Source: an uncultured Chloroflexia bacterium
GTDB taxonomy: Bacteria; Chloroflexota; Limnocylindria; Limnocylindrales; CSP1-4
NCBI GenBank assembly: GCA_963746845.1
Contig: CAVVCZ010000006.1
Location: 128,001-192,000 of the forward strand
DNA length: 64,000 nt
Direction of reading: 5' to 3'
The position numbers and the translations under genes are program-made. The notes under the pieces are model-generated. The model was not told the DNA's origin. It saw only the letters and a program-made list of their open reading frames with translations, and searched no databases. Each line of letters starts with the position of its first letter. Position 1 is the stretch's first letter. Of the stretch, positions 6,617 through 39,621 are shown piece after piece.

Positions 6617-6753
6617 CGCGACAGGGTACGCGGCGGTCCCGTGCGCGGGCTCGCCTGACCCGATCGGATCGGCCGGCTGACCCCGTCGACCCATGGCCCG
6701 GTGCCTCCCCGCACCGGCAAGGTGGACCGGCTCGCAGAGGAACCTCGCTTCCG

Positions 6754-8166: not shown

Positions 8167-8200
8167 GCGCCGGCGGGCCCGGGCCGGGTATCGTCGGTCC

Positions 8201-8806
8201 GTGACCGACCCCGGCTTCGACCCCGATCTCCCGCGCTGCCGCTGGGCCGGCGCGTCGGGTCCGAACCCGGATCCGCTCATGGTCCGGTATCACGACGAGG
8301 AGTGGGGCACACCCTGCCACGACGACATCGAGCTGTTCGAGCGGCTCGCCCTCGAGTCGTTCCAGGCCGGTCTGTCGTGGTCGACGATCCTCCGCAAGCG
8401 CGAGGGGTTCCGGGCCGCCTTCCGGGGCTTCGATCCCGTCGTCGTCGCGGCCTTCGGGCCGGGCGATGTCGAGCGGCTGATGGCCGACGCCGCCATCGTC
8501 CGGAACCGGGCGAAGATCGACGCGACGATCGGCAATGCCGGGGCCTGGCTCGCGATCGCGGCCGAGCAGGAATCCGGCGATACGTACCTCGCGCGGATGG
8601 TCCCGCCTCCGCCCGGGCGCCTGGGCCGCGACGCCATCGCCGGCGGCATCCCGGATCGGACCCCCGTCAGCGATGCGCTGTCGAAGGACCTCAAGAGGCG
8701 GGGGTTCCGGTTCGTCGGATCGACGATCGTGTATGCGTTCATGCAGAGCGTCGGGCTCGTCGACGACCATGTTCCCGGCTGCTTCCGGTACGTCGATTCG
8801 CCGTGA
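8201..8806 (+). CDS. tag: DNA-3-methyladenine glycosylase I
   Basis: RCRWA, YHDEEWG, LESFQAGLSW, RNRAKI, GFRFVGSTIVYAFMQ..G..DDH...C. Confidence 0.95.
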   Translation: MTDPGFDPDLPRCRWAGASGPNPDPLMVRYHDEEWGTPCHDDIELFERLALESFQAGLSWSTILRKREGFRAAFRGFDPVVVAAFGPGDVERLMADAAIVRNRAKIDATIGNAGAWLAIAAEQESGDTYLARMVPPPPGRLGRDAIAGGIPDRTPVSDALSKDLKRRGFRFVGSTIVYAFMQSVGLVDDHVPGCFRYVDSP

Positions 8807-14577: not shown

Positions 14578-14611
14578 CGGCGCCCCCGGCCGTCACCCGG
14601 ATCGCGTCGCA

Positions 14612-14639
14612 TCGGGGGGCGACGGTGGTCGCCCCCCGA
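14612..14639. terminator. 12-bp hairpin between oppA and oppB (mRNA stabiliser or attenuator)
   Basis: TCGGGGGGCGAC-ggtg-GTCGCCCCCCGA. Confidence 0.55.
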
Positions 14640-14683
14640 CCCAGACCGGTCGCCGGTGCCGAAGGGCACGCGACGGGCCGGGC

Positions 14684-16603: not shown

Positions 16604-16753
16604 GAAGGTTCTCCTCCTCGTCCGGCCCGCGCCCCGCGGCGTGAGTCCGTTGTCCGCGACCTCCTCCCGGCCGAAGTGCGCGGAAGGATGGCATGAGGTC
16701 CGAAGGGCTGCAAGCGTGAGCCCGTACCGCGCGCCACATCCTGTCCGCCGAGG

Positions 16754-17719
16754 TCAGTCGGAGGTCACGACCTCCTCGACGACGAGCGTGCCGGCGCCGG
16801 CGTCGAGCGTTGCCAGCGCCCCGAGCGGAACGGTCGCGTGGTGCTTGCCGTGGCCGATCGGGAGGCCGAACACGAGCGGCAGGCCGAACGGCTCGAAGAG
16901 CTCCTCGACGATGTCCTCGGCCGACAGATCGCCGATCCCGTCGCTCGGCGTCGTCCTGAGATCCCCGACGGCGATCCCGGCCGCGCCGTCGAGCAGCCCC
17001 GCGTTCCGGAGCTGGGTGAGGATCCCGTCGAGCACCTCCCCCTCCAGGTCGATCTCCTCGAGGACGACGATCCGGCCCCGCAAGTCCGGCTGGAGGCGCG
17101 TTCCGATGGCGCTGGAGAGCAGTCCGGCGCAGCCACCGGCGAGACGTCCGGTGACGCGCCCGCCGACGATCGTCCGGACATACGGGTCGTCCGGGTCCGG
17201 CCCGATCGGTCCGAGCGGCTCGTCGCTGAAGAGGGCGCGCCGGAGGTGCTCCTTGGAGAAGTCCGTGACATCGGTCGCCCCGATCCCGAGGGCGCCGTTG
17301 GCATAGAAGCTGATCACGTTCGCCCAGCGCTCCTGGGCCAGGTGGAGCGTCGTGATATCGCTGTAGCCGCACAGGATCTTCGGGTTGGCGGCGAAGCGCG
17401 GCTCGTCGAGGAGCGGGATCAGACGCGGCGTGCCGTAGCCGCCCTGGAGGCACATCACCGCCCGGACGTCGGGATCGGCGAGCGCGACGTGGAGATCCGC
17501 GACGCGGTCGACGTCGCTGCCGGCGAGGTAGCCGTGACGGTCGTTGACGTGTTCGCCGAGCCGGACCGTCAGGCCCCACGCCTCGAGGGCGGCGACCGCC
17601 CGGAGCAGGTCGCTCCGACTCTCCCACGGGCTCGCCGGGGCGACGATCGCGACCGTGTCGCCGGCCCGCAGGCGGCGCGGCTTCCGCGGCCCTTCGTCGT
17701 GGTGGGTCATCGCGACCAT
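16754..17719 (-). CDS. S66 peptidase (LD-carboxypeptidase/MccF family)
   Basis: IVAPAS, GGYG, GYSDIT (Ser), LEEI (Glu), IGHG (His). Confidence 0.92.
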   Translation of the reverse strand: MVAMTHHDEGPRKPRRLRAGDTVAIVAPASPWESRSDLLRAVAALEAWGLTVRLGEHVNDRHGYLAGSDVDRVADLHVALADPDVRAVMCLQGGYGTPRLIPLLDEPRFAANPKILCGYSDITTLHLAQERWANVISFYANGALGIGATDVTDFSKEHLRRALFSDEPLGPIGPDPDDPYVRTIVGGRVTGRLAGGCAGLLSSAIGTRLQPDLRGRIVVLEEIDLEGEVLDGILTQLRNAGLLDGAAGIAVGDLRTTPSDGIGDLSAEDIVEELFEPFGLPLVFGLPIGHGKHHATVPLGALATLDAGAGTLVVEEVVTSD

Positions 17720-18998: not shown

Positions 18999-19280
18999 AT
19001 GAACGTGCGCACGAACCTGCTCCTGCCGAAGGAGCTCCTCGACGAGGTCGACAGGTTCGCCGGCGAACGCGGACGGAGCCGCTACGTCGCCGAAGCCCTC
19101 CGGGTGAAGCTGAAACGCGACCGGTTCCGGGAGATGATCGAGCGCACAGCGGGCGTCCTGAGCTCGGAGGACTACCCGGAGTGGGCCACCTCCGAGCAGG
19201 TCGTGGAGTGGGTTCGGGCGCGTCGACGCGAAGTCACCGACACCGTCGGGATCGACACGGATGAGGAGGCTCACGGGTGA
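18999..19280 (+). CDS. RHH-type antitoxin (VapB-like)
   Basis: MNVRTNLLLPKELLDEVDRFAGERGRSRYVAEAL ribbon-helix-helix; DYPEW..WVR; GTGA overlap with the PIN gene. Confidence 0.85.
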   Translation: MNVRTNLLLPKELLDEVDRFAGERGRSRYVAEALRVKLKRDRFREMIERTAGVLSSEDYPEWATSEQVVEWVRARRREVTDTVGIDTDEEAHG

Positions 19281-19657
19281 GGCTCGTCCTGGACTCCAGC
19301 TTCGTCATCGACCACCTCCGGGGGCTACCAGAAGCGGTGGATCGGATGGAGTCGATGTTCGAGGTGGGGGACGAGGCGTACGTGACCGACGTTGTCGTGT
19401 GCGAGGTCCGGGCGGGACTCCGCGCGGAAGCCGAGCATCACCTGCTGGCCGTGCTGGAGCCGATCGAGTTCATCCAGGCGGGACCGGAGCAAGCCATCCT
19501 CGCCGGCCGTTGGCGGGCCGAGCTACGGTCTGCCGGGCGCACGCTCAGCCTCGCTGATGCCTTGATCGCTTCAGCAGCAGCGTCGCTCGGCGCCGCGGTG
19601 CTGACGCGGAACCGACGGGACTTCGCGCTGACGCCGGTCGCGGTCGAGACCTACTGA
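19277..19657 (+). CDS. vapC: PIN-domain toxin (VapC)
   Basis: LDSSFVID, CEV, LADALIA, LTRNRRDF. Confidence 0.92.
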   Translation: MRLVLDSSFVIDHLRGLPEAVDRMESMFEVGDEAYVTDVVVCEVRAGLRAEAEHHLLAVLEPIEFIQAGPEQAILAGRWRAELRSAGRTLSLADALIASAAASLGAAVLTRNRRDFALTPVAVETY

Positions 19658-25651: not shown

Positions 25652-27541
25652 ATGGCTGACCCGACTGCCGGCGGAGGGTCGCCGTCGACTGCCTCGAGCG
25701 GTGTCCGCGCCGGCTCCGTGACCCGGGGCTTCCTGTTCTCGGACCTGCGCGGGTACACGAAGTTCCTCGAGACCCGCGGCGCCGCGGCCGCGGCCGACGT
25801 CCTGCTTCGATATCGGGACCTCGTCCGCGGGCTCGTGCAGCAACACGCAGGGGCCGAGATCCGGACGGAGGGCGACAGCTTCTATGTCGTGTTCGCCGCG
25901 GTCAGTGATGCTGTCCAGTGCGGCCTCGCGATCGCCGCGGAGGCTCGCGCGGCATCGATCGAGCGCCCCGAGGCGCCGATCGCGGTCGGCATCGGGATCC
26001 ATGCCGGCGAGACGATCGAGACGCCGGATGGATATGTCGGTGGGTCGGTCAACATCGCGGCTCGGCTGTGCGCCCTGGCCGGGGCCGGCGAGGTCCTCGT
26101 CAGCGACACGGTCCGGGCACTGACCTACACCGTCCTCTCGGTCAGTTTCGTGCCCCGCGGCAAGAAGGCCCTCAAGGGGGTGACCGACCCGGTCGCCGTC
26201 TATGCCGTGGTGCCCACCTCGGAGGCGCCGCACCCGACCGCCACCGGCCGGCTGCGCCGGCTGTCGCGGGGCGCCCGCGCCGGCATCGCGGTCGTGGTCG
26301 CCATCGCCGTCATCGGCGTCGGGGCGTTCGCCTTCACCGCCCTCCGCCATGGCGCGGGCCTCCCTGCCGGGGCATGGAAGATCGGGCTGGACGTGCCGCT
26401 CACGGGCGACGCCGCATTCCGCGGCATGCAGATCAAGAACGGGGTCACGCTCGCCCTGGACGATGCGAATGCCGCCGGCGGGGTCGGCGGTGCCCAGGTG
26501 GCGCTGGACGCAAAGGACGACGCGGGCAACGCGGACACCGACCAGGATCCGGTCGCCGGCGCGGCGAACGCCTCTGCGCTGGTCGCCGACCCGAACGTCC
26601 TGGCGATGGTCGGCCCGGCCGGGTCGCCGGTCGCCAAGGCGGAGATCCCGATCACGAACCAGGCCGGGCTCCTCGAGTGCAGCCCGGCGAACACGCTTCC
26701 GGGGCTGACGAAGCCGCGCGACGGCGCCCTCGATCTCCGGTCGGCGTTCCCGACTCGGATCAACTACATCCGGACGGCGCCGTCGGACGACATCCAGGGC
26801 CCGGCGCTCGCCTCGTTCGTCTTCCACGACCTCGGCGCGACGTCGACGCTCGTGATCGACGATGCCGACCAGGGGCGGCAGGTCGCGGACGACTTCGCCG
26901 CGGCCTACACGAAGCTCGGGGGGACCGTGGTCCGCCGGGCCCTGAACCCGGGCGACCAGCCGGACTCCGTCCTCGCGCCGCTCGCGACCGCGAGCGGCGC
27001 TCCGGCCGCGGTGTTCTTCGGCGGCTTCACCGAGACGGGTGCCCCCGAGGTCCGCGAGGCGATGGTCGCAGGCGGTCACGCCGACGTGCCATTCGTGAGC
27101 TGGGACGGGATCCAGGACGGGTCCGGCGCCGACAAGGGCTCGTTCATCCAGACCGCCGGGCCGGCCGCCGTCGGCTCGTACTTCTCGCACGCGTCGTTCG
27201 GGGCTCCGAAGGCCGACTTCGTCACTCGCTATCGCGCCCGGTTCAACGACGATCCCGACGAATATGCGACGGCGGCGTTCGCCTGCACGCAGGTCATCCT
27301 GGGCTCGCTCCGGGCCGTGGCCGCGACCGGGCCGAGCGCCGACGGGCTCCGCGACGCCGTCCGCGCCTACGCCGTCGACCCGAGCAACCGGTTCGACACG
27401 GTCATCGGCTCGGTCGGGTTCGATGCCAACGGCGACTCGCTCCAGCAGTTCGTCACGTTCTACAAGGTCGATGGTTCGGCCGCCGGCGGAACGGGCGACT
27501 GGGTGATCGACAAGCAGCAGGACTTCGGCCCGGCGCCGTAG
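25652..27541 (+). CDS. Class III nucleotide cyclase - TM helix - extracellular LIVBP-type ligand-binding domain
   Basis: FSDLRGYT, TEGDSF, GIHAGE, VNIAARL, LKGV; TM GIAVVVAIAVIGVGAFAF; KIGLDVPLTG...RTAPSDDIQG...G.VGFDANGD. Confidence 0.88.
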   Translation: MADPTAGGGSPSTASSGVRAGSVTRGFLFSDLRGYTKFLETRGAAAAADVLLRYRDLVRGLVQQHAGAEIRTEGDSFYVVFAAVSDAVQCGLAIAAEARAASIERPEAPIAVGIGIHAGETIETPDGYVGGSVNIAARLCALAGAGEVLVSDTVRALTYTVLSVSFVPRGKKALKGVTDPVAVYAVVPTSEAPHPTATGRLRRLSRGARAGIAVVVAIAVIGVGAFAFTALRHGAGLPAGAWKIGLDVPLTGDAAFRGMQIKNGVTLALDDANAAGGVGGAQVALDAKDDAGNADTDQDPVAGAANASALVADPNVLAMVGPAGSPVAKAEIPITNQAGLLECSPANTLPGLTKPRDGALDLRSAFPTRINYIRTAPSDDIQGPALASFVFHDLGATSTLVIDDADQGRQVADDFAAAYTKLGGTVVRRALNPGDQPDSVLAPLATASGAPAAVFFGGFTETGAPEVREAMVAGGHADVPFVSWDGIQDGSGADKGSFIQTAGPAAVGSYFSHASFGAPKADFVTRYRARFNDDPDEYATAAFACTQVILGSLRAVAATGPSADGLRDAVRAYAVDPSNRFDTVIGSVGFDANGDSLQQFVTFYKVDGSAAGGTGDWVIDKQQDFGPAP

Positions 27542-27571
27542 CGGCCCGATCTGGCCGGTTCCACCCGCCGG

Positions 27572-27733
27572 TCAGGCGCCGGGCGCGTCAAACGACGTTC
27601 GGCGCCGCCCGCGGATCCCGATTGGCGCTTTCGGACATCAGACGACGCGCTGGACGCTCGATTCGACGGCCGACGGGGCTGTTGCCGGCGACTTCGGGCG
27701 GTGCGGACGTCGTTTCACGCGGTGAGCGCCTGA
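27572..27733. repeat. ~160-bp imperfect inverted-repeat element between convergent genes
   Basis: TCAGGCGC..GCGTCAAACGACGTTCGGCGCCGCCCG pairs with CGGGCGGTGCGGACGTCGTTTCACGC..GCGCCTGA. Confidence 0.6.
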
Positions 27734-27778
27734 AGGGGTGTCGGCGCGCCCCCGCGGCCGGGCAGCTTCCGCGATGGG

Positions 27779-28843
27779 TCAGGCGAGGAGGGCGACCAGC
27801 GCTGCCCGCCCGGTGATCGCGGTGATGATCGCGACGGCGACGCTGGCGAGCGTCCCGAGCAGGTAGTACTCGGCGAAGTCGCGGTCGTCGAGGAGCCGGA
27901 ACCGAGCGAGGGTCTTGGCCGCGACGACAAAGCCGATCGCCGCCTCGGTACCGGTCAGCACGAAGACCACGACGAGGATCCGCTCGAGGACGCCGATCGT
28001 GGCCCCGACGCGCGCGGTCTGGGCGCGCGGTGCGGCGACGGCCAGGACCGCTTCGGCGGCCGGAGGCGGCGGATCCGGCTCCGCCTCGATCCGCGTCTCC
28101 AGCGGGCCGATCCGGACCGACCAGCCGCGCGACCGGTCGAGGGGCGCGGGGCCCGACGACGGCGCGGCACCGACCCCGCCAACCGGTGGCGCGTCCACGA
28201 CCGACGGGCCGGCGCGTCCGCCCCAGCGCGTCTCGCCCTCCGTCTGCTCGACCGGCCGGACGAGGACGGCGACGAAGATCGACGCCGCCAGGATGTTCGC
28301 GATCGCCAGGCTCGAGAGGACCACCCCGGCGGACACGACGTCGTGGACCGCGGCGCGGTCCCAGCTCCCGAGGATCTGGTTGACGGCGTCGGTCCACCCC
28401 TGCAGCAGAGGGGCGCTCGACAGGAGCACCGCCCACGCGACGAACGCGACCAGCAGGTGGGCCAGCTGGTCGAGGATGAACAGCGCCGCGGGCCACGGCG
28501 TCCACGCCCGGCCCAGGTGGTCGGATGGCTGGACGCCCTCGTGCCGCCCGTGGGCGGCGACCAGCGCCGACGCGGCCGCGCGCCGGGTCAGCAGGACCTT
28601 CGAGCGGTCGATGAGCATGTGGAGGATCGCGGACGCGGCCAGGAACGCCCAGCCCGGCCCGCCCCACGCCAGCCCGACGGGGATCAGGCAGACCGCGACG
28701 ATCGCCCCGTGGGCGACCAGCCCACGCAGCGCGCGCGAGCCGTGGTCGGACTTCGCGCGGACGATCGAGGTGGTCTGGAACAGGAAGTCCGCCGCGAGAT
28801 GGGCGAGGACGAGCCAGGCGAGGACAAGGATCGGGTCGGTCAT
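27779..28843 (-). CDS. DUF3307-type membrane protein (SatE-like)
   Basis: AHLAADFLFQ, HG, HMLID, DQLAH; C-terminal IGVLER..AAKTLARF..AEYYLLGTL. Confidence 0.8.
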   Translation of the reverse strand: MTDPILVLAWLVLAHLAADFLFQTTSIVRAKSDHGSRALRGLVAHGAIVAVCLIPVGLAWGGPGWAFLAASAILHMLIDRSKVLLTRRAAASALVAAHGRHEGVQPSDHLGRAWTPWPAALFILDQLAHLLVAFVAWAVLLSSAPLLQGWTDAVNQILGSWDRAAVHDVVSAGVVLSSLAIANILAASIFVAVLVRPVEQTEGETRWGGRAGPSVVDAPPVGGVGAAPSSGPAPLDRSRGWSVRIGPLETRIEAEPDPPPPAAEAVLAVAAPRAQTARVGATIGVLERILVVVFVLTGTEAAIGFVVAAKTLARFRLLDDRDFAEYYLLGTLASVAVAIITAITGRAALVALLA

Positions 28844-29469
28844 CCGGGACCCTCCGCCGGGCGGGCGAGGAGCGTCCGGATCACTCGCGCGAGCTCGCCG
28901 ATCGAGCGCAGGTGAGCGCGATCTGCGGCGACGGAGACCGTCGCCCGGCTGACACCCAGCCGTGCCGCGGCCTCGGATTGACGGAGGCCGTCGACGAGGA
29001 TCGGCCAGGCGATCTCCCGCTGCCGCTTCGTGAGGTCGTCGAGCAGCTCGCCGAGGAGGGGCGCGAGACCGTTGAGCAGGTCGTCGGTCGGGGGGTCGCC
29101 ACGGACCGCGGCGACGGACTCGCGACGCGAGGCGGCGCCGGCGAGGCGCTCGCGGGCCGTGATGAACGCCGGTCCGCTGCGCTGGGTGGCCGGTCCGTGG
29201 CCCGGATCGACCTCGCCCCGGACGAGGACCCAGCGCATCGGGAGCCGATCCGGATGGAGGGACGCGCGGAGGACGGCCCGGGTCGGGTCGGCGGCGGGCG
29301 TGAGCAGGCCCTGGATCTCGTCGCCCTGCGTGAACTCGAACGCCGCGAGCCGATCACCCGCGGGGTAGGCGGCGTCCAGATCGGCCGTCAGCATCCGGAG
29401 CCAGGCCGTCGCCGCCGGCGCATTGCCGCGCGAGCGGACCACGTCGCCGAAGAGCACCACGGCGTCCAT
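28840..29469 (-). CDS. SatD-family protein (cyclase-like palm domain + C-terminal HTH)
   Basis: GDVVRSR, TQGDEIQG, SGPAFITAR, LTKRQRE..QSEAAARLGVSRATVS. Confidence 0.82.
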   Translation of the reverse strand: MDAVVLFGDVVRSRGNAPAATAWLRMLTADLDAAYPAGDRLAAFEFTQGDEIQGLLTPAADPTRAVLRASLHPDRLPMRWVLVRGEVDPGHGPATQRSGPAFITARERLAGAASRRESVAAVRGDPPTDDLLNGLAPLLGELLDDLTKRQREIAWPILVDGLRQSEAAARLGVSRATVSVAADRAHLRSIGELARVIRTLLARPAEGPG

Positions 29470-29475
29470 CGCCCG

Positions 29476-29528
29476 AGGCTAACGCGAGCAGAGTTAGCCG
29501 TCAACGACTAATCCGGGTCGAGTTAGCC
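29476..29528 (-). promoter_or_regulatory. Leaderless sigma70 promoter overlaid by two tandem palindromic operators
   Basis: Minus strand TTGACG(29504-29499)-17 nt-TAGCCT(29481-29476)-6 nt-ATG; GGCTAAC-N9-GTTAGCC (29477-29499) and GACTAAT-N9-GTTAGCC (29506-29528). Confidence 0.75.
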
Positions 29529-29551
29529 ATCTCCGGCAAGCGAGGAGAGGC

Positions 29552-31117
29552 TCATCCGGCGACCGCAGCCGATCGCGCCTCGTCGACGATCTCCGCAACG
29601 CGCGCCCCGATCGCCGGCGTGTCGAACCGGAGCAGCGGGTCGGGATCGATCATCCGCTCCTCGACCTTCCCGTCGCGCCGGAAGTAGACCACCGGGTAGA
29701 TCGCCCCGCTGCCGTCCGCCTCCAGGGTCAGCGCGAGCAAATCGCCCGTGCCGTCGTCGCCGACCCCGTCCACGAACGCCGCCAGGGGCACGATCCCCTC
29801 GTTCCGCGGCCCCTCGCCCGGATCGAGCGAGATCACCCGGGCAAGGTAGGCCCGCTGGTGCCACAGCTCTGGCGCCATGGCGAGCTCCGCCTGGATCATC
29901 GTCACGAGGTCGTCCGCGGCGACCGGGGGTCGCTCCGGGGCCACCCCGAAGACCGTCCGGGCCACGTGGTTCGCGAGGACGCGGGCGTTGTACCGGGCAC
30001 CATGGACCGCGCCGGAGTTCGCGGGCAGGCCGTGCTTCTTCAACCCGGCGGATCCCTGCCCGATCGTCCCGGCGAAGAAGATGCCGGGCAGCGACGCGCT
30101 CTCCCAGTACGGCGTCTGGGCCGGGAGCCGGCTCTGCCCGAAGGTCGTCACCCCGAGATCCGGCAGGTCCAGGAGCGGCGTGACGAACCCGGTTGCCGAG
30201 ATGACCTCGTCGGCCTCGATCACGAGCTCGTCGCCGCCCGCCGATGGCCGCACCCGGACGATCAGGCCGTCGCCGCCCTCCGCCCGCTCGATCCCCCCGA
30301 TCGACGCGTCGAGGATCGTGACGCCGCCGCCGAGGACGTGATCCTCGAACGGCTGGACGTAGCGCGCCCGGACGCCGACGAGGGACTTCGTGTTGACCGA
30401 CAGCTTCGCCGGCGATGGTGAGGCGAGGACGATCCGGCGGGCCCAGGGCAGCAGCCCGGACGCCAGCTCGAAGCCCGAGTTCTGCTTGCCCATGATGAAG
30501 ACGCGGTGACCGGCGTACGTCTCCGCGGGCCGGGTGTCCGCATAGTGGGCGGCCAGCTCGATCCCCGGCGTCGCGGGCGCGTACGGCTCGGCGACGCCGA
30601 CCGCGAAGATCGCGACGCGGGCGCGGTACTCGCCGTCAGCCGTCTCGAGGATGAAGCGGTCGCCGTCGGCGGTCTCCTCTCGGCGGGTCGCGGTCCAGCG
30701 GCAGTCGTACCGGATCCGGACCCCGGTCTGCTTCGCGAACGTGCCGAGGTTCAGCTCCATCTCCGGTCGCGACGGGAAGTAGGACGTCCCGTCCATGAGG
30801 CCCGGCATCAACGAGCGGTGCTCGGGCTCGTCGGCGAGGAGGCTGTTCCAGTCGTAGCGCTCGTAGGCCCGGCTCGATTGCTCGACGGGGGCGTACGGCT
30901 TCGTCCACGACAGGAGCCGCTGGAAGAACGGCCAGCGGCGGAACATGCCGCCGGGCGCCGGATCGGCCGAGATCACCGCATGGTCGAGCCCGACGCGGTC
31001 GAGGGCGTACGCCACCTGGATCGCCCCGGGACCGCTGCCGACGACGATGACCGGGTAGTCGCCCGGTGGGAACGGTCGCTCGGCGTCGCGATCCCCCGAA
31101 GCGGTCAGCTCCGCCAC
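29552..31117 (-). CDS. NAD(P)/FAD-dependent oxidoreductase, FOXRED2-like
   Basis: VVGSGPGA, GGMFRRWP..RLLS.TK, RYDWNSLL, MGKQNSGFE, SATGF, WES...GIFFAGT, VHGARYNAR; GTG start overlaps the upstream gene. Confidence 0.82.
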   Translation of the reverse strand: MAELTASGDRDAERPFPPGDYPVIVVGSGPGAIQVAYALDRVGLDHAVISADPAPGGMFRRWPFFQRLLSWTKPYAPVEQSSRAYERYDWNSLLADEPEHRSLMPGLMDGTSYFPSRPEMELNLGTFAKQTGVRIRYDCRWTATRREETADGDRFILETADGEYRARVAIFAVGVAEPYAPATPGIELAAHYADTRPAETYAGHRVFIMGKQNSGFELASGLLPWARRIVLASPSPAKLSVNTKSLVGVRARYVQPFEDHVLGGGVTILDASIGGIERAEGGDGLIVRVRPSAGGDELVIEADEVISATGFVTPLLDLPDLGVTTFGQSRLPAQTPYWESASLPGIFFAGTIGQGSAGLKKHGLPANSGAVHGARYNARVLANHVARTVFGVAPERPPVAADDLVTMIQAELAMAPELWHQRAYLARVISLDPGEGPRNEGIVPLAAFVDGVGDDGTGDLLALTLEADGSGAIYPVVYFRRDGKVEERMIDPDPLLRFDTPAIGARVAEIVDEARSAAVAG

Positions 31118-31527
31118 CGGTTCGCGTTCCGCAGACGGCGCGCCTGCGCCTGAAGCATCCGGTACATCAACGGCGGGTTGTCGAGGAGGACACCGCGCAC
31201 CGCCGGTCCGCCGAGCACGAGTGTCCGCATCTCGCGGGAGGCGACGATGTCGGCGCCGGGCGGCTCGCCCAGCAGGATCGACACCTCGCCGAAGAAGTCG
31301 CCGCGGGACAGGGTGGCCCGCTTCTGGCCGTCGATGATCACGTCGGCCTCGCCGTCGAGGATCACGTGGAACGCCGAGCCGGTCAGGCCCTGCCGGAGGA
31401 TCCGGGTGCCCTGGGCGTGGACCTCCTCCTCGAACATGTGGGCGATCCGCTCGAGCTGCGGCGTCGTCAGGTCGGCGAAGAGCGCGAACCCGGCGATCTG
31501 GTCGACGATCTCGTCGCGACTGGCCAT
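31105..31527 (-). CDS. Stand-alone cyclic-nucleotide-binding domain protein (degenerate phosphate-binding cassette)
   Basis: LFADL, ILRQG, ILDGEADV, GDFFGEVSILLGEPPGA. Confidence 0.88.
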   Translation of the reverse strand: MASRDEIVDQIAGFALFADLTTPQLERIAHMFEEEVHAQGTRILRQGLTGSAFHVILDGEADVIIDGQKRATLSRGDFFGEVSILLGEPPGADIVASREMRTLVLGGPAVRGVLLDNPPLMYRMLQAQARRLRNANRWRS

Positions 31528-31670
31528 GGACGGGTCGTCCCTCCAACGGAGCGTGGTGGACGCATTCTGGCACTTGCCACCGTTCGGCGATGACCGCTCC
31601 CTCGCGGACGTCGCGGTTGACGCCGACCGGGCGCGGCGCGCAGCATCACGAGGAACTCACAGGAGGCTCC

Positions 31671-32099
31671 GTGACCCTCACCCTCGACCGGCGGAACGAG
31701 CTGCTCGGCAACTGTCCGCTGTTCCGCGGCGTGACCGGCGACGACCTGTCGGCGGTCGCCGACCGGGCCGTCGAGGTCGACTTCCCGGCCGACCACGTGA
31801 TCGCCCGGCAGGGCGAGATCGAGACCGGCTTCTTCGTCGTCATCGAGGGGTCCGTGCGGGTCGTCCGGGACGGGCAGGAGCTGGCCCGCCTCGGGCCCGG
31901 CGACTTCTTCGGCGAGATGTCGGTCATCGACGGCCTGCCCCGGGTGGCCTCCGTCGCGACGGAGGAACCGACCCGCTGTCTCGCCCTCGCGAGCTGGGAG
32001 TTCGAGAAGCTCGTCCTCGACCATCCGACCATCGGTCTGGCGATCCTCCGGGGCCTGTCGGCCCGGCTGCGATCGAAGACCGAGCCGCCCCAGCACTGA
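31671..32099 (+). CDS. Stand-alone cyclic-nucleotide-binding domain protein
   Basis: AGGAGG before GTG 31671; PLFRGV, IARQGE, IEGSVRV, GDFFGEMSVIDGLPRVAS. Confidence 0.9.
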   Translation: MTLTLDRRNELLGNCPLFRGVTGDDLSAVADRAVEVDFPADHVIARQGEIETGFFVVIEGSVRVVRDGQELARLGPGDFFGEMSVIDGLPRVASVATEEPTRCLALASWEFEKLVLDHPTIGLAILRGLSARLRSKTEPPQH

Positions 32100-32131
32100 C
32101 GGAGCGTCCCCCCACGGACACGCAGACCGGG

Positions 32132-34873
32132 GTGCGGTCCCTGCCGACCGGCACCGTCGCCTTCATGTTCACCGACATCGAGGGCTCGACCGCGCTCGCC
32201 CAGGCGCTCGGCGCCGAGCGCTGGAGCGCGCTCCTCGGCCGGCATCGCGAGCTGATCCGGGCCGCGGTCGCCGCCCACGGCGGCTCGGAGGTCTCGACCG
32301 AGGGCGACGGCTTCTTCCTCGTCTTCCCCCGGACGTCCGACGCGATCGCCGCGGCCGTGGACGCCCAGCGGGCGCTGGATGCCGAGCCCTGGTCGCCGGA
32401 CGCGCCGGTCCGGGTCCGGATGGGGATCCATACCGGGGACGGGCGGCTGGACGGGGACGGCAGCTACGTCGGGGCGGACGTCCATCGCGCGGCGCGGGTC
32501 GCCGCCGCAGGGAACGGGGGCCAGGTCCTCCTGTCCGAGACGACCTCGTCGCTCGTCGCGGACGAGCTGCCGCCGGGCGTCGTGCTGCGCGGCCTCGGGG
32601 AGCACCGCCTGAAGGACCTCCGGCCGGAGCGCCTGTGCCAGCTCGTCGTCGAGGGGCTGCGGTCCGACTTCCCGCCGATCCGCTCGCTCGACCGGCGACC
32701 GAACAACCTGCCCACCCAGCTCACGAGCTTCGTCGGCCGGGCGGCGGAGCTGGCGAAGGCCGAGGAGCTGCTCCAGACGACGCGGCTCCTCACCCTCACG
32801 GGCCCGGGCGGCACCGGCAAGACCCGGCTGTCGCTCCAGCTCGCGGCGAACGTGTCCGACCGGTTCCCGGACGGGGTCTGGTTCATCGCGCTCGAGCCCG
32901 TTCGCGACCCGGGCCTGATCGACGCCACGATCCTGACGACGGTCGGGCTGGTCGAGGGCGGCGGACGGACGGCGCGCGACATCCTCGTCGACTGGCTCGC
33001 GGCGCGCCAGGCACTCCTCGTCCTCGACAACTTCGAGCAGGTGATCGAGGGGGCGCCGATCGTCGCGGACCTCCTGCGCAGCGCACCGAAGGTCTCGGTG
33101 ATCGTCACGAGCCGGGCCCCGCTGCGGGTCAGCGGGGAGCAGGAGTACCCGGTCCCCGGCCTGCCCGCGCCGGTCGACGTCCTCGCCCTGACGGACCTCG
33201 AGAAGCTGAACCTGCCTGCCGGCGCGCGACGCCTGGACGCGACGTCGATCACGACCTACGAGGCGGTCCGGCTGTTCATCGCCCGGGCTCTCGCGGTCCG
33301 GCCGGATTTCCGGGTCACGAACGAGAACGCGCCCGCCGTCGCCGGGATCGCCGCGCGTCTTCACGGGATGCCCCTCGCGATCGAGCTGGCGGCGGCCCGG
33401 GTCAAGCTCCTCCCGCCGGACGCGATCCTCGAGCGGCTCGAGCACCAGCTCGGCGTCCTGGCCGCGGGGTCGCGCGACCTGCCGGAGCGCCAGCAGACGC
33501 TCCGCGGGGCGATCGCCTGGAGCCACGAGCTCCTGGACGCCGGCCAGCGCCGGCTCTTCGCCCGGATGTCCGTGTTCGTCGGCGGCTGCGAGCTGGACAG
33601 CGCCGAGACGATCTGCGGGCCGGCCTCCGAGCTCGATGGCCTCGACGTCCTCGACGGGCTGATGGCCCTCGCCGACCAGAGCCTCGTCCGGGTCGAGGAG
33701 ATCGACGACGCGACCCGGTTCCGGATGCTCGACACGATCCGCGAGTTCGCTGCGGAACAGCTGACCGCGAGCGGCGAGCGCGAGGAGATCGAGCGCCGCC
33801 ACAGCGCCGCCTTCGTCGAGCTCGCCGAGTCCCTGACGCCGCGGCTGTCCGGCGACGACCAGCGCCGGTGGCTGGGCCGGCTCGAGCGCGACCACGACAA
33901 CATCCGGGCCGTGCTCGACCGGGCGACCGCCGCCGGCGATGGGCCGACCGCGATCCGCCTCGGGTTCGCGATGTGGCGTTACTGGCAGAAGCGCGGGCAT
34001 CTCGCCGAGGCGAGCCGCCGGCTCCGGGCGATGGCCGACGCGCCCTGGTCCCACGACGATCCCGTGCTGCGGGCCCACCTCATGGAGGCGTTCGGCGGCG
34101 TGGCCTGGTGGCAGGCCGACCTCGCCGCCATGGCGCCGGCGTACAACGAGGCGCTTGCGATCTGGGAAGAGGTCGGCGACCAGCGGGAGATCGTCAACGC
34201 GCTCTACAACGACTCGTTCCAGTACTCGGTCACGGTCGATCCGAAGGAGTCCGACCCCGACCACATCGGGTTCCGTCAGATGATCCGCGCGCGCGACCTC
34301 GCGGCCGAGATCGGCGACGAGCGTGGTCACGCGAACGCGCTCTGGGGGATCGGCAACTACCGCTATTTCCATGACGATGAGGACCGCGGCCTGAGCCAGT
34401 TCCGCGAGGCGCTCGACATCTTCCGCCGCATCGGCGACCGGACGATGGAGGCGTGGTCGCTCCACATGCTCAGCACCGCCCTGATCCGCGCTCAAGAGAC
34501 CGAGGAGTCGCGCCGGGACGCGTTCGCGGCGCTCCGGCTGTTCCACCAGTACGGCGACGTCGCCGGGATCACGCTCGCCCTGGACGACTTCGCCGCGATC
34601 GCGATCGCCGATGGGGACGTGCCGCGGGCCGCCCGGCTGTGGGGGGCGGCGCGGGCCCTGTCATCCGCGAGCGGCGTCGGCCTGGCCGACTTCGTCGATG
34701 AGCAGGACGAGTACTACGGCCGGCCGAACGCCCGGTCCTCGGTCGATCCTGCCGAGCTCGAGAAGTATGCAAACGAGGGCCGCTCCATGACCCTCGACGA
34801 GAGCGTCGCCTACGCGCTGCAGTCCTCCATCGACGACCTGGCGCCGCACGACCACGCAGGCACCGCGCGATGA
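32132..34873 (+). CDS. Class III cyclase - STAND (NB-ARC-like) ATPase - TPR protein
   Basis: LPTGTVAFMFTDIEGST, TEGDGF, RMGIHTG, VHRAAR; NNLP..LTSFVGR, GPGGTGKTRL, LVLDNFE, VTSR, GMPLAIELAA; helical repeats; start approximate. Confidence 0.92.
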   Translation: MRSLPTGTVAFMFTDIEGSTALAQALGAERWSALLGRHRELIRAAVAAHGGSEVSTEGDGFFLVFPRTSDAIAAAVDAQRALDAEPWSPDAPVRVRMGIHTGDGRLDGDGSYVGADVHRAARVAAAGNGGQVLLSETTSSLVADELPPGVVLRGLGEHRLKDLRPERLCQLVVEGLRSDFPPIRSLDRRPNNLPTQLTSFVGRAAELAKAEELLQTTRLLTLTGPGGTGKTRLSLQLAANVSDRFPDGVWFIALEPVRDPGLIDATILTTVGLVEGGGRTARDILVDWLAARQALLVLDNFEQVIEGAPIVADLLRSAPKVSVIVTSRAPLRVSGEQEYPVPGLPAPVDVLALTDLEKLNLPAGARRLDATSITTYEAVRLFIARALAVRPDFRVTNENAPAVAGIAARLHGMPLAIELAAARVKLLPPDAILERLEHQLGVLAAGSRDLPERQQTLRGAIAWSHELLDAGQRRLFARMSVFVGGCELDSAETICGPASELDGLDVLDGLMALADQSLVRVEEIDDATRFRMLDTIREFAAEQLTASGEREEIERRHSAAFVELAESLTPRLSGDDQRRWLGRLERDHDNIRAVLDRATAAGDGPTAIRLGFAMWRYWQKRGHLAEASRRLRAMADAPWSHDDPVLRAHLMEAFGGVAWWQADLAAMAPAYNEALAIWEEVGDQREIVNALYNDSFQYSVTVDPKESDPDHIGFRQMIRARDLAAEIGDERGHANALWGIGNYRYFHDDEDRGLSQFREALDIFRRIGDRTMEAWSLHMLSTALIRAQETEESRRDAFAALRLFHQYGDVAGITLALDDFAAIAIADGDVPRAARLWGAARALSSASGVGLADFVDEQDEYYGRPNARSSVDPAELEKYANEGRSMTLDESVAYALQSSIDDLAPHDHAGTAR

Positions 34874-35055
34874 TCGAGCCGATCGAGATCCGGCTGCTCG
34901 ACGACGAGGGGGACACGCCGGCCGAGGCATCCATCAGCGATGATCCGGCCGCCGTCGTCCTGACCTGCGCAAACTGCGGGGCCGCGATGGACGAACGGAA
35001 ATGCAAGCTGATCTGCCGGTGCGGATACTTCCTGTCCTGCTCCGACTACTACTGA
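34870..35055 (+). CDS. Small Cys-rich Zn-finger protein
   Basis: CANC..CKLIC.CGYFLSCSDYY; ATGA overlap with the STAND gene stop. Confidence 0.8.
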   Translation: MIEPIEIRLLDDEGDTPAEASISDDPAAVVLTCANCGAAMDERKCKLICRCGYFLSCSDYY

Positions 35056-35089
35056 CCGCGGGCGCGAACGCCCGCCGGAGGACCTTCGC

Positions 35090-35512
35090 ATGACCCTTGC
35101 CGCCTTCGCCGCCACGAGCGCTCCCGGTCCGATCGGCGTCGACTACCAGCCGGGCGTCTGCAACATCGGCCCGGCCGAGATCGCCCGTCGCCGGAGGGCC
35201 GGCCACGTCGGGCTCATCGCGACGGTCGCGCTGTTCGCGATCCTCGTCGCCGTCGATGCGCCGCCGATCGCGAGGCTCGTGCTGTTCCTCCCGGCGGCCA
35301 TCGCGGCCTCGGGCTACCTCCAGGCGTGGCTCAAATTCTGCGCCGGGTTCGGGTCCCGCGGGATCTTCAACTTCGGCGACGTCGGCTCGACCGACGAGGT
35401 CGCGGACGCCGCGGCCCGCGCACTCGACAAGGCGAAGGCCAATCGGATCGGGCTGCTCAGCTTCGCGATCGGGCTGGGCGTGGCGGTCGTCGCGGTGCTT
35501 CTCCCGATCTGA
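35090..35512 (+). CDS. Conserved small membrane protein
   Basis: YQPGVCNIGPAEIARRR, LQA..KFC..FG; three TM segments; GGAGG RBS. Confidence 0.75.
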   Translation: MTLAAFAATSAPGPIGVDYQPGVCNIGPAEIARRRRAGHVGLIATVALFAILVAVDAPPIARLVLFLPAAIAASGYLQAWLKFCAGFGSRGIFNFGDVGSTDEVADAAARALDKAKANRIGLLSFAIGLGVAVVAVLLPI

Positions 35513-35545
35513 ACGGTCCCGGCGCGGCCGCCGTAGACTTCGGCG

Positions 35546-36454
35546 ATGACCGCCGAGGCGACCCAGCCCGCCGCCACCGGGCCGGCCCCGACCACCGCCG
35601 CCGGTGCTTCGGCGCCCGGTCGCGAGAAGACCGCGATCCCGAAGAACCCTGGGCGGCGCGACCTCGGGATGAAGGCGACGCTCCTGTTCCCGAACAAGGA
35701 GATCGTCGAGCAGTACTACGTCCCGCTGATCTACACCGCGTGCCGGACGTGCTACTCGGAGCTGACCCCCGACGACATCTTCGACCGCGCGACCGACGGC
35801 CGGGTCGAGCCGGCGAAGATGCAGAAGCTGATCTCCGGCGTGATCGAGTCCGGCCACGGGAGCACGATCGAGCACGTCGTCTTCACCTTCGGGATCAGCG
35901 GCGTGTCGCGGACGCTGTCCCACCAGCTCGTCCGCCATCGGGCTGGCGTCGCGTTCGACCAGCAGAGCCAGCGCTACGTCACCTTCAAGGGCGCGTCGAC
36001 GATGCTGCCGGCCTCGATCGAGGACGCCGAGCCGGAGCTGCGCGACGCGTACAACGAGCAGATCGCGGGCTCGATGGACCTGTACGGCCAGCTCGTCGGT
36101 GCCGGGATCCCGGGCGAGGACGCCCGGTTCGTCTTCCCGAACGCGACCCGGACGAACCTCGTCATGACCACGAACTTGCGCGCGCTCATCCACATGTCCG
36201 GGCTGCGCCTGTGCACGATGGCCCAGTGGGAGATCCGCCGGCTGTTCCAGCTGATCCGCCACGAGATCTTCCAGGTGAGCCCGTTCCTGGGCTCGTTCCT
36301 CGCGCCGAAGTGCGTCGCCCTCGGCTACTGCGACGAGATGGGCAACCGCGACGAGCACTGCCCGATCCGCCCGCACAAGGACAACGTCCTCGCGGCGTGG
36401 GCGGAGAAGTCGAAGGCCGCGAAGGCCGCGGGTCGCGACCTTCCGGTCCGCTGA
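35546..36454 (+). CDS. thyX: FAD-dependent thymidylate synthase
   Basis: GHGSTIEH, SRTLSHQLVRHR...QQSQRYV, EDARFVFPN, NLRAL.H...R....AQWEIR. Confidence 0.95.
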   Translation: MTAEATQPAATGPAPTTAAGASAPGREKTAIPKNPGRRDLGMKATLLFPNKEIVEQYYVPLIYTACRTCYSELTPDDIFDRATDGRVEPAKMQKLISGVIESGHGSTIEHVVFTFGISGVSRTLSHQLVRHRAGVAFDQQSQRYVTFKGASTMLPASIEDAEPELRDAYNEQIAGSMDLYGQLVGAGIPGEDARFVFPNATRTNLVMTTNLRALIHMSGLRLCTMAQWEIRRLFQLIRHEIFQVSPFLGSFLAPKCVALGYCDEMGNRDEHCPIRPHKDNVLAAWAEKSKAAKAAGRDLPVR

Positions 36455-36482
36455 TCATCGGATCGAGCGAGCTCCTCTGAAC

Positions 36483-37061
36483 ATGGCGGAGCCCAATCGC
36501 CTGCAGCAGGCCGTCGCACCGAACACGATCGGCTCGGTGACGCCGCGTCCATCCCCGTCGCCGGCGCCACGGACGGCCCCCGACGGAGCGACGAACGACG
36601 ATGGCGATGCCTTCGACACCTTCGACCTCGATGACCTCGACGAGGCCGCCGCGGCGGCGGACCACGCCGTCTCCCATGGCGAGCTCGACCGGCGGGTCCA
36701 GGAGGCCGTCGCGACGGCGATGGCCGATCAGACGGCGGCGGTCGCGGCGGCCCGACGGCGCGGCCGGATCGGGTTCATCGCCGGGCTCCTCCTCGCGGCG
36801 GCAGGCGTCCCGCTGTTCTTCGGGGCGTCGCTCGTCGCCGAGGAGGCCGGCATCGCGCTGATCTGCATCGGCATCGGCGTGGCGCTCCTGTCGATCCTCA
36901 TCGCCGCCGCCCGAGCCGACGTCGCGGCGAGCCGGCGATCGACGACCGCGGCGGTCGCCACCACGATCCTGTTCCCGCATGCGGCGATCGTCTGGATCGC
37001 CGCGATCGGGCTCGTCGCGTTCGGATTGCTCGTCCTGCTGGTGGCCGTGCAGACAGCCTGA
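36483..37061 (+). CDS. Hypothetical membrane protein
   Basis: Acidic N-terminus plus about four TM segments; codon usage typical of the window. Confidence 0.6.
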   Translation: MAEPNRLQQAVAPNTIGSVTPRPSPSPAPRTAPDGATNDDGDAFDTFDLDDLDEAAAAADHAVSHGELDRRVQEAVATAMADQTAAVAAARRRGRIGFIAGLLLAAAGVPLFFGASLVAEEAGIALICIGIGVALLSILIAAARADVAASRRSTTAAVATTILFPHAAIVWIAAIGLVAFGLLVLLVAVQTA

Positions 37062-37087
37062 CGAACGGAAGCCCAGGCGAGCCGCGG

Positions 37088-37945
37088 TCAGCCCGCGGCC
37101 AGACCCGCGACGAACCGCCGGATCACGCGCGCGAGACGGGGGCCGGCCTCGGCTCCCGCGGCGAGGACCTCCTCGTGGGTCAGCGGCTCGCCCGAGTACC
37201 CGGCGCCCGCATTCGTGACGAGCGACACGCCGCAGACCTCGAGCCCCGCCCAGCGCGCGGCGATGCACTCGAGGACCGTCGACATCCCGACCGCGTCCGC
37301 GCCGAGCGTGCGGAGCATCCGGACCTCGGCCGGGGTCTCGTATTGCGGCCCGAGGAGCCCCGCGTAGATCCCTTCGGTCAGCTCGACGCCCTCTGCATCG
37401 CCTGCGGCGTGGAGCGCCGCGCGGAGACGCGGACTCCAGGCGTCGGTCAGGTCCTGGAACCGAGGACCGATCGCATCCGCGTTCTGGCCGAGGAGCGGCG
37501 TCCGTCCGGTCAGGTTCAGGTGGTCGGCGATGACCATGAGCGTTCCGGGGCCGAAGGCGGGGTCGACGCCGCCCGCCGCGTTCGTCAGGACGACGATCTC
37601 GGCGCCGAGCCGCCGGAACAGGAGGACCGGCTGGACGACCAGGCCCGGGTCGTTGCCTTCGTACACGTGGAACCGGCCCTGGAGCATGACGACGGGTGTA
37701 TCGCCGAGGCGACCGAGCAGGAGCCGTCCGACATGACCCGGCGCGGTCGCCGCGGGCCAGCCCGGCAGGTCGGCGAACGGGATCGCGGTCGCGTCCTCGA
37801 GGTCGTCGGCCAGGCCGCCCAGCCCGGAGCCGAGGACGATGCCCACGCGCGGGACGAGGCTCGCGCGCGCGCGGATCGCGGCCTCCAGCGCATCGAGACG
37901 GGCGGGCTGGTCCGCGGGCGGGATCGGGGTCGAGACGGGAATCAC
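37088..37945 (-). CDS. Purine nucleoside phosphorylase (trimeric, PunA/XapA type)
   Basis: IVLGSGLG, GH.G.L, QGRFHVYEG, TNAAGG, GPQYETPAE, GMSTVLE, SLVTN, HEEV; start approximate. Confidence 0.93.
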   Translation of the reverse strand: MIPVSTPIPPADQPARLDALEAAIRARASLVPRVGIVLGSGLGGLADDLEDATAIPFADLPGWPAATAPGHVGRLLLGRLGDTPVVMLQGRFHVYEGNDPGLVVQPVLLFRRLGAEIVVLTNAAGGVDPAFGPGTLMVIADHLNLTGRTPLLGQNADAIGPRFQDLTDAWSPRLRAALHAAGDAEGVELTEGIYAGLLGPQYETPAEVRMLRTLGADAVGMSTVLECIAARWAGLEVCGVSLVTNAGAGYSGEPLTHEEVLAAGAEAGPRLARVIRRFVAGLAAG

Positions 37946-37975
37946 GGGCGCGCGGGCCTCCGGGATCTCATCCAG

Positions 37976-38184
37976 GGGGAAGACGGCCGAGGCCCGCTGA
38001 GCAGAAAGCCCGACGGACGTACCGACACCGGGATGCCGGTCGCAGTCCGCCGGGCGGTCGTCGCTCGGACGGGGACGAACGAGGCCGCCGGGTCCGGGCA
38101 ACGAAGCGCCCGAAGCGACCGGCGCGGAGCGGAGGCCCTTGATGTGATCTCGGTTTCTCCGGTTCCTGACGGCCCCTTCGGGCA
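37976..38184 (-). ncRNA. Candidate 6S-like rod-shaped ncRNA (~200 nt)
   Basis: Own promoter; nested pairing GAAG/CTTC, GGCCG/CGGCC, AGAAA/TTTCT, CCGA/TCGG, then a central unpaired region, then GCCGGTCGC/GCGACCGGC, CGGGCG/CGCCCG, TCGTTGC/GCGACGA, CGGAC/GTCCG. Confidence 0.5.
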
Positions 38185-38351: not shown

Positions 38352-39392
<1,041 letters not shown>

Positions 39393-39621
39393 CGCTCGCA
39401 ATCCTAGCGTGGCCCCGAGGAACCGCCCGCCCATACGACCCGAAGACGACCGAAATCTCGGTTGCGAGCGGTCAACGCGCCAGGGTCCGCCCCTGACGGC
39501 GGTACCACCGGCGCCCGCCGCTGGTACCTCTAGCGGACTCCATCACACCCACCACTCGCCACCACAATGCGGCCACGCCCTGGACCCCCTGCAGCGCGCC
39601 ATCTGGAGAGGCACACGACGC

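Follow-up and report, generated by a model that had tools for sequence, protein, structure and literature searches.

Bacterial cyclic-nucleotide signals are read mostly by CRP-type transcription factors, with a few other outputs such as an acetyltransferase, ion channels and defence effectors. Among the enzymes that make such signals, cyclase-STAND proteins of the Rv0386, Rv1358 and Rv2488c type, the mycobacterial class IIIc group, consist of an N-terminal cyclase, a P-loop STAND NTPase, helical repeats and a C-terminal LuxR-type helix-turn-helix (HTH) domain. Here we describe a locus in which a protein of related architecture (CYC) is encoded beside two stand-alone proteins of the cyclic-nucleotide-binding (CNB) fold, named cNMP1 and cNMP2 after cyclic nucleoside monophosphates (cNMPs), a flavoenzyme (FLAV) and a zinc-finger microprotein (ZnF). 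It occupies positions 29552-35055 of a 64,000-nt stretch, referred to throughout as the window, which corresponds to positions 128,001 to 192,000 of contig CAVVCZ010000006.1 (assembly GCA_963746845.1) from an uncultured soil Chloroflexia bacterium of the Limnocylindrales. Our analysis favours, tentatively and at slightly less than an even chance, the view that the locus is a conserved signalling cassette on the chromosome of Limnocylindria-type Chloroflexota, composed of a coupled cNMP1-FLAV core and a cNMP2/CYC input arm that is usually adjacent. The fixed cNMP1-FLAV enzyme pair is the firm part of this reading and rests on adjacency, translational coupling and a predicted complex; the CYC and cNMP2 input arm forms a looser layer.

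The locus resembles several described systems in part. CYC has the domain order of the mycobacterial class IIIc cyclase-STAND proteins and also carries non-canonical substrate-specifying residues, as that group does (Rv0386 is active with Gln/Asn at its specificity positions); unlike the Rv0386 group, it has no C-terminal LuxR/GerE-type HTH, and its neighbours are two stand-alone CNB proteins and a flavoenzyme. In the role proposed for it, cNMP1 would be a small CNB protein that regulates an enzyme as a separate subunit, like the PKA/PKG regulatory subunits, from which it differs in having a flavoenzyme rather than a kinase as its partner and a single CNB domain per chain. FLAV has the two-Rossmann FAD/NAD(P)H fold in common with YpdA/Bdr and the small bacterial flavin monooxygenases (SMFMO), and we know of no YpdA/SMFMO member with a CNB partner. 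Pycsar systems, finally, encode a class III-like cyclase beside CNB-domain proteins, as this locus does.

The coupled cNMP1-FLAV pair

The locus is built of two divergent arms, cNMP1-FLAV running leftward and cNMP2-CYC-ZnF running rightward, with the following features:

29552-31117, minus strand: FLAV, flavoenzyme of 521 aa (Pyr_redox_3, E 6e-23 by Pfam)
31105-31527, minus strand: cNMP1, CNB-fold protein of 140 aa (PF00027, 43.3 bits; cutoff 27.5)
31528-31670, no strand: divergent (predicted) promoter region between cNMP1 and cNMP2
31671-32099, plus strand: cNMP2, CNB-fold protein of 142 aa (PF00027, 72.6 bits on a 169-aa reading)
32132-34873, plus strand: CYC, cyclase-STAND-TPR protein of 913 aa (Guanylate_cyc, PF00211, at residues 5-143, 44.5 bits; cutoff 21.9)
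34870-35055, plus strand: ZnF, microprotein of 61 aa with six Cys and no Pfam family

All five genes claimed by the initial annotation within 29552-35055 are present, and so are both overlaps that it described: the stop of cNMP1 overlaps the GTG start of FLAV by 13 nt (31105-31117), and the start of ZnF sits within the stop of CYC (ATGA overlap). In this window of 70-75% G+C, the frame-specific G+C content of third codon positions (GC3), at 0.89-0.96, backs each gene of the module and separates real genes from spurious open reading frames (ORFs).

Relatives of the locus were gathered by running the FLAV alignment (A2) against species-representative genomes; 417 relatives were confirmed, and the best 80, at 57-90% identity, were analysed, their loci being searched by tblastn with the window proteins. 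Sixty of the 80 have adequate flanks (at least 4 kb upstream and at least 3 kb downstream). In all loci whose upstream sequence spans 450 nt or more (76/76), a cNMP1 orthologue immediately precedes FLAV on its strand; among the other four, two with shorter upstream flanks contain partial cNMP1 copies and two have no upstream DNA. The 13-nt overlap of cNMP1 and FLAV recurs in 45/77 loci, and the spacing of the two genes stays between -23 and +40 nt in 72/77. The nearest database relatives of FLAV (74-100% identity) and the 80 loci are labelled as Candidatus Limnocylindrales or Chloroflexota metagenome-assembled genomes (MAGs), which marks the window as DNA of a high-GC Chloroflexota rather than of an actinomycete. 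Several loci (L003, L033, L062, L071, L072 and others) bear the labels Verrucomicrobiia, Dormiibacterota, Actinomycetota, Bauldia or Kaistiaceae, yet in the FLAV tree they group within the Chloroflexota, at 58-79% identity; the foreign labels may stem from mis-binned contigs, loose labelling or transfer.

The association of a small cNMP protein with the flavoenzyme, as envisaged by the initial annotation, is also supported by structure prediction. The predicted FLAV-cNMP1 complex reached a median score of 0.80 over three runs, compared with 0.00 for the best of three controls; among the calibration sets, 116 of 157 solved complexes attained this mark, as did 2 of 215 mismatched pairs, and these rates are rough here since our own alignments were used. 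The runs had at least 84% of their contacts in common, with a partner predicted local distance difference test (pLDDT) value of at least 85, and they placed the N-terminal helix and beta2-beta3 of cNMP1 against the NAD(P)H domain, the 357-363 segment and the C-terminal domain of FLAV. A memorised structure is unlikely to account for this score because, to our knowledge, no CNB-flavoenzyme complex has been solved. The prediction supports binding, short of showing it, and cNMP1 and FLAV most likely form a complex in which cNMP1 would be the regulatory subunit. Apparent cNMP-FLAV fusions in four of 15 long representatives (P0242, P0189, P0145 and P0143) were rejected as evidence, their out-of-frame junctions marking them as frameshift read-throughs; P0148, P0203, P0221 and P0258 are frameshifted as well and were dropped from alignment A1.

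Pfam, the predicted model and the fold search describe FLAV as an NAD(P)H/FAD two-dinucleotide-binding-domain flavoenzyme of YpdA/FMO-like type. Its AlphaFold2 (AF2) model has a pLDDT of 85, and Foldseek retrieves the YpdA/Bdr reductase 7a76 together with the flavin monooxygenases 4c5o and 4a9w as the best Protein Data Bank (PDB) folds, matched over about 385 alignment columns (gaps included) within the first 390 or so residues (E about 2e-18; template modelling (TM) score 0.73-0.80 on the target). A profile search of the PDB returns the YpdA/Bdr and small flavin monooxygenase families as well. The motifs by which two-dinucleotide-binding-domain flavoproteins are defined appear as GxGxxG (residues 27-32), GKQNSG (210-215) and an ATG motif (308-310). 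FLAV, whose identity to the YpdA and SMFMO structures is just 14-20%, exceeds them in length by about 190 residues and carries an additional alpha/beta domain at the C-terminus (residues 400-521, approximately) and a conserved, poorly modelled loop at residues 236-262; distant relatives align only to about residue 438. The loop (about 30332-30412, minus strand) has a conservation of 0.81 against a protein mean of 0.68, with R250 invariant, yet its pLDDT is below 50, and it may become ordered only with substrate or partner. It lies outside the confidently predicted cNMP1 interface residues.

The naming of FLAV needs some care. It contains a single Cys (C139) and lacks the redox-active CxxC of thioredoxin-reductase-type disulfide reductases, which makes the label 'thioredoxin reductase' (JGI) unlikely to be right, and no curated NCBIfam model reaches its cutoff on the protein. 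The description 'FOXRED2-like' in the initial annotation is a fair lead, given that the FOXRED2 cluster ranked 13 with a score of 0.98 in the Atlas search, but the match to the eukaryotic protein is one of features only.

Two CNB proteins and a cyclase-STAND arm

That the two small proteins both read a cyclic nucleotide, as first suggested, is borne out for cNMP2 and not for cNMP1. cNMP2 combines PF00027 with the Gly-Glu and Arg-x-Ala of a canonical CNB receptor, and its cassette (FGE...PR.A) is invariant in 61/61 sequences. cNMP1 has the CNB fold and the profile match, but the phosphate-binding cassette Arg is absent from 78/78 sequences: Pro90 stands at the Arg position, and an invariant Asp93 follows three residues past the lost Arg, at the Thr/Ser position. 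Hidden Markov model (HMM) alignment to solved PKG CNB domains gives the same column correspondence for both changes. F79, G80, L85, L86 and D93 are invariant in cNMP1, the altered cassette being among the best-conserved parts of the protein, and because the altered cassette is itself so highly conserved, the pocket looks like a working one of changed specificity rather than a decayed one.

A precedent for such a change is found in the trypanosomatid PKA regulatory subunit; its CNB domains, likewise without the Arg, have nucleosides rather than cAMP as their ligands (PMC10959531). In both proteins the cassette Arg has been lost and Gly-Glu kept, whereas the replacements differ: cNMP1 has Pro for Arg and Asp for Thr/Ser, and the trypanosome domains have Thr/Asn for Arg and Glu for Ala (PMC10959531). 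The profile of cNMP1 best matches the CNB domains of PKG and PKA-R (E 4e-52 to 1e-34, summed over repeats). Both cNMP1 and cNMP2 (140 and 142 aa) end about 25 residues past the CNB barrel; Pfam gave no HTH_Crp_2 match in either, and the CRP NCBIfam match scored 35 bits against a cutoff of 266. Neither protein is a CRP-type regulator, because each is a bare CNB fold without an HTH.

The cNMP2 gene on the plus strand is real, as initially annotated, but its start requires correction: it very probably begins at GTG 31671, behind AGGAGG (31661-31666), and not at ATG 31590. The GTG is preferred because the orthologues are 142 aa long and align from residue 1, and because a conserved TTGACG-N18-CAGCAT element falls between the two candidate starts, downstream of the ATG. 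The divergent intergenic region therefore exists as described but would measure 143 nt instead of 62. On its plus strand, TTGACG (31617-31622) and CAGCAT (31641-31646) are separated by an 18-nt gap, and a pair of this kind, 14-20 nt apart, occurs in 34/54 divergent spacers; on the minus strand, an extended -10-like TGnCAGAAT at 31564-31572 has counterparts in 9/54 spacers, all from close relatives. A strict consensus scan returned no promoter, a terminator scan found one terminator-like site, inside thyX and no more than shuffled sequence yields, and an Rfam search over 27000-38000 found no family.

CYC comprises a class III cyclase domain (residues 1-175, approximately), an NB-ARC-type STAND NTPase (about 200-535) and a TPR sensor (about 550-900); its AF2 model (pLDDT 88.6) displays helical repeats to residue 896, followed by a disordered tail. 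The cyclase domain has both a profile match above cutoff and the cyclase fold, and it is nearest to Ma1120 and Rv1900c (E 1.5e-21 against the PDB sequence for Ma1120, and TM scores of about 0.9 on the target in Foldseek for both). The Foldseek matches of CYC are headed by the STAND-TPR protein 6mfv and continue with Apaf-1 and plant NLRs. The NB-ARC label given to the protein has no Pfam NB-ARC match on the window CYC, but motifs and fold support it: the STAND Walker A (GPGGTGKT), the Walker B pair D299-N300 and G412-x-P414-L415 are invariant. The NB-ARC model passes on an orthologue (26.6 bits against 23.5, in locus L059), and the AAA_16, AAA_22 and TPR_12 Pfam matches of CYC lie below their cutoffs. 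No LuxR-type HTH was found in CYC by Pfam (E <= 0.01) or in the predicted structure, in agreement with the initial annotation, and the output of the protein must therefore run via a diffusible product or protein contacts rather than DNA binding.

The gene co-occurrence on which the idea of a module depended extends, in related genomes, from the cNMP1-FLAV pair to the cyclase-STAND-TPR gene. A CYC-family gene is present in 64/80 loci; of the 60 adequately flanked loci, 52 have one no more than 10 kb away. Three arrangements occur: 55 divergent (assembly frameshifts interrupt three of these), 8 immediately downstream of FLAV and on its strand (one cut by a contig end) and 1 upstream on the same strand. 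cNMP2 occurs in 60/80 loci, 54 times divergent and 6 times in tandem upstream of cNMP1, and in these six tandem loci it stays beside cNMP1-FLAV even though no cyclase is near. Two CYC-family genes stand in tandem upstream of FLAV in L034, L042, L043, L046, L050, L052 and L055. Locus L062 carries a different cyclase-AAA_16-TPR gene (12079-15384, minus strand, 1101 aa) 0.6 kb downstream, with an N-terminal Zn_Ribbon_1. In L059, a cNMP1-FLAV-CYC locus, a disulfide-reductase-type flavoprotein gene with Pyr_redox_2 and Pyr_redox_dim (14105-15553) overlaps the end of CYC and is followed by a GAF-GAF histidine kinase gene (15730-17370); an ORF in L032 (14102-15523) is like this flavoprotein gene in size and place.

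ZnF, which the initial annotation counted as part of the module, is a real, ATGA-coupled gene (GC3 0.89), but only 22/80 loci have it, the HMM search giving an all-or-none result, and in every one of them it immediately follows a CYC-family gene on the 3' side; in the tandem-CYC loci L042, L043, L046 and L055 it follows the distal copy. We regard the predicted zinc finger as an optional accessory of the cyclase gene. Its Cys pattern is C-x2-C-x8-C-x3-C-x-C-x5-C, and the last 30 aa of the protein hardly vary. The Atlas lead for ZnF is an HVO_2523-like zinc finger (score 0.94), a label borne by 13% of that cluster's members. L062 has its zinc ribbon fused to a cyclase-STAND protein, and the window has a separate zinc-finger microprotein after one.

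Evidence for and against a linked circuit

In a signalling cassette of this composition, ligand binding at the TPR/NB-ARC part of CYC would cause oligomerisation and thereby assemble active cyclase dimers, by analogy with known STAND proteins and class III cyclases. CYC would then make a cyclic nucleotide, left uncalled here given its non-canonical base-specifying residues, and cNMP2, with its intact cassette, would bind that product. The signal would finally reach the cNMP1-FLAV complex and alter flavoenzyme activity, either through an action of cNMP2 on cNMP1 or FLAV or through a non-canonical ligand in the Arg-less, Asp-bearing pocket of cNMP1. The self-contained second-messenger circuit of the initial annotation is thus upheld in part: the linkage, the canonical cNMP2 and the metal aspartates and transition-state Arg of the cyclase speak for it, while the enzyme's direct partner is not a canonical receptor.

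A series of findings weighs against this circuit. To judge from its cassette, cNMP1 probably does not sense cyclic nucleotides in the normal way, and direct cNMP control of FLAV through it is doubtful because the Arg is absent in 78/78 sequences and Asp occupies the Thr/Ser position. The predicted interface is conserved no better than average, at 0.70 against 0.68 overall in FLAV and at 0.61 against 0.71 in cNMP1, where 99.8% of randomly drawn residue sets equal or exceed it in conservation. No CYC-family gene lies within 10 kb in eight of the 60 adequately flanked loci, namely the six tandem cNMP2-cNMP1-FLAV loci, L061 and L062; the six tandem loci and L061 have no cyclase within that distance, and eight cNMP1-FLAV-CYC loci have no cNMP2. 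The 80 loci all belong to one lineage, at 57-90% identity, and on a quick FLAV tree the tandem type together with L061 and L062 forms one clade (8 rows, support 98) and the downstream type another (10 rows, support 100), the other 59 rows being divergent, with L011 alone. Because the arrangement types are clades, the cyclase link appears to be backed by about three to four independent arrangements rather than by 64 observations, which is modest evidence.

A distant homologue of FLAV also counts against the circuit. Searching a plasmid collection by tblastn with FLAV returned distant matches only (35% identity or less), mostly ArsO-type monooxygenases, and the best of them, a homologue from Nonomuraea gerenzanensis at 35% identity, has a CMD/AhpD-like gene upstream and not a CNB gene. 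In this record (L081), an 11.85-Mb replicon filed in the plasmid collection whose genes were annotated by Pfam, the CMD/AhpD-like gene (6432-6995) overlaps the start of the 513-aa FLAV homologue (6992-8533), and a TetR gene lies downstream.

These findings bear on the main rival to the signalling cassette, in which the arms are two separate units that happen to be neighbours: cNMP1-FLAV would be a self-contained two-subunit enzyme, with cNMP1 sensing a nucleoside, a substrate or product, or a FLAV segment, or being purely structural, and the cNMP2-cyclase(-ZnF) operon would signal elsewhere. We consider this rather unlikely. In its favour, the cassette Arg of cNMP1 is missing throughout and an invariant Asp lies close by, the nucleoside-binding, Arg-less CNB domains of trypanosomatid PKA offer a precedent (PMC10959531), each arm has its own predicted promoter, and to these are added the eight cyclase-less loci with adequate flanks and the small number of independent arrangements. 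The adjacency of the cyclase nevertheless survives three gene orders, and in eight loci its gene comes directly after FLAV in the same apparent operon; cNMP2 is kept with cNMP1-FLAV in the six loci from which the cyclase is missing, and L062 has another cyclase-AAA_16-TPR gene 0.6 kb away.

The catalytic state of CYC decides whether any messenger would be made. Of the metal aspartates, D15 is conserved in 57/58 CYC-family sequences (the miss is a truncated row) and D59 in 58/58, and the transition-state R122 does not vary among the 38 sequences of alignment A6. A further observation weighing against the circuit is that the equivalent of the substrate Lys is Ser55 in CYC and G, S, K, A, R, N, Q or V in its orthologues; Lys occurs there in just 3/58, so that the Lys/Asp combination of the adenylyl type is lacking, and the position equivalent to the specificity Asp is ambiguous owing to a one-residue insertion relative to Ma1120 (K101, D157). 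At the transition-state Asn position, the window protein has His118, and its orthologues have either Asn or His. Because the Lys position varies and the Asn is His, the activity and product of CYC are uncertain; the sequence makes catalysis plausible and does not allow the product to be called.

The same residues (Ser55, His118 and two specificity positions that are non-canonical or ambiguous by comparison with K101 and D157 of Ma1120) could instead mean that the cyclase domain has little or no catalytic activity and that its sole role in the STAND protein is dimerisation or effector scaffolding, with no messenger coming from CYC. We find this improbable. Both metal aspartates and the Arg are conserved (57-58/58), a canonical receptor gene, cNMP2, heads the CYC operon, and Ma1120, whose substrate residue is Lys101, is active with Ala at the transition-state Asn position (PMC4215837).

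A more far-reaching version of the signalling cassette would accommodate the unusual cassette of cNMP1 and the free variation of the base-specifying residue of CYC. The locus would then represent the first metabolic flavoenzyme placed under second-messenger control by a split, two-protein regulatory subunit, in which cNMP2 reads the cyclase product, the docked cNMP1 reads a non-phosphate ligand or a segment of the enzyme, and CYC might make something other than cAMP. Taken together, these proposals are speculative and, in our estimate, unlikely to hold in full.

Genomic setting and biological meaning

The neighbours of the locus are ordinary chromosomal genes, including thyX, a purine-nucleoside phosphorylase (PNP) gene, moaA, an acetyl-CoA synthetase gene and ABC transporter genes. 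Those closest to the module are:

27779-28843, minus strand: 354-aa DUF3307 protein, on the strand of FLAV and after the HTH gene
28840-29469, minus strand: 209-aa protein with a weak sigma-70 region-4 / KorA-type HTH, 82-nt gap downstream of FLAV
35546-36454, plus strand: thyX
37088-37945, minus strand: PNP, a frequent neighbour in related loci
38352-39434, minus strand: moaA

thyX is present in 47/80 loci, all of the divergent arrangement, and a sigma-r4-like HTH gene in 22/80, directly after FLAV and exclusively in the divergent type. We take both as plain synteny with the divergent type; the HTH gene at 28840-29469 could join the leftward operon, but it, too, resembles plain synteny.

This setting bears on another explanation, namely that the locus defends against phage in the manner of Pycsar or of bacterial NLRs, with a CNB-domain effector responding to the cyclase signal. 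cNMP1 and cNMP2 do match the CNB part of PycTIR effector models (E 5e-11 and 1e-15), and STAND NTPases are common among defence systems. Unlike Pycsar, however, the locus has a conserved core-genome context, with housekeeping synteny (thyX and PNP, as above), and no PycC match (none for CYC at E <= 0.001); cNMP1 and cNMP2 consist of the CNB fold only, with no TIR, transmembrane or other killing domain, and the partner is a metabolic-type flavoenzyme. A role in defence is accordingly very improbable, and both it and the dead cyclase are less likely than the arrangement as two separate units.

Several other genes of the window deserve mention. A second class III cyclase gene (25652-27541, plus strand, 629 aa) lies 4 kb off and joins a cyclase to a Peripla_BP_6 / branched-chain-amino-acid-binding-type domain; only L001 has a full-length orthologue, the other loci matching just the binding-protein part. 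Between ZnF and thyX, a gene at 35090-35512 (plus strand) encodes a 140-aa hydrophobic protein without family, found otherwise only in the closest relative, L001. A GGDEF diguanylate-cyclase protein (61622-63022, minus strand) and a PIN-domain protein (19277-19657, plus strand) are unrelated to the module.

No description of the cassette was found in the titles and abstract openings of the literature searched, nor was a passage on these domains found in the accessible portion of a 2004 survey of actinobacterial cyclases (PMC2447327). The component families are known and widely represented, with 5277 database clusters for cNMP1, 5742 for FLAV and 2292 for ZnF (at E <= 0.01 for the last), and the database names of the cassette proteins are generic. 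What is new is the combination, the CNB-fold protein as a dedicated flavoenzyme partner, and the conserved Arg-less Pro/Asp cassette.

If the signalling cassette proves true, bacterial cyclic-nucleotide signalling would gain an enzymatic output, redox or oxygenation, through a CNB-fold protein dedicated to a flavoenzyme. cNMP1 offers a natural, strongly conserved CNB pocket rebuilt without the phosphate-binding Arg and, as such, a target in the search for new CNB ligands. CYC, a cyclase-STAND protein without a DNA-binding output, may help to show how oligomerisation of a STAND protein controls an enzyme domain that works as a dimer. Among the Limnocylindria, uncultured Chloroflexota that are abundant in the soil and freshwater metagenome data searched, the cassette is widespread, and its function likely belongs to the core physiology of this group.

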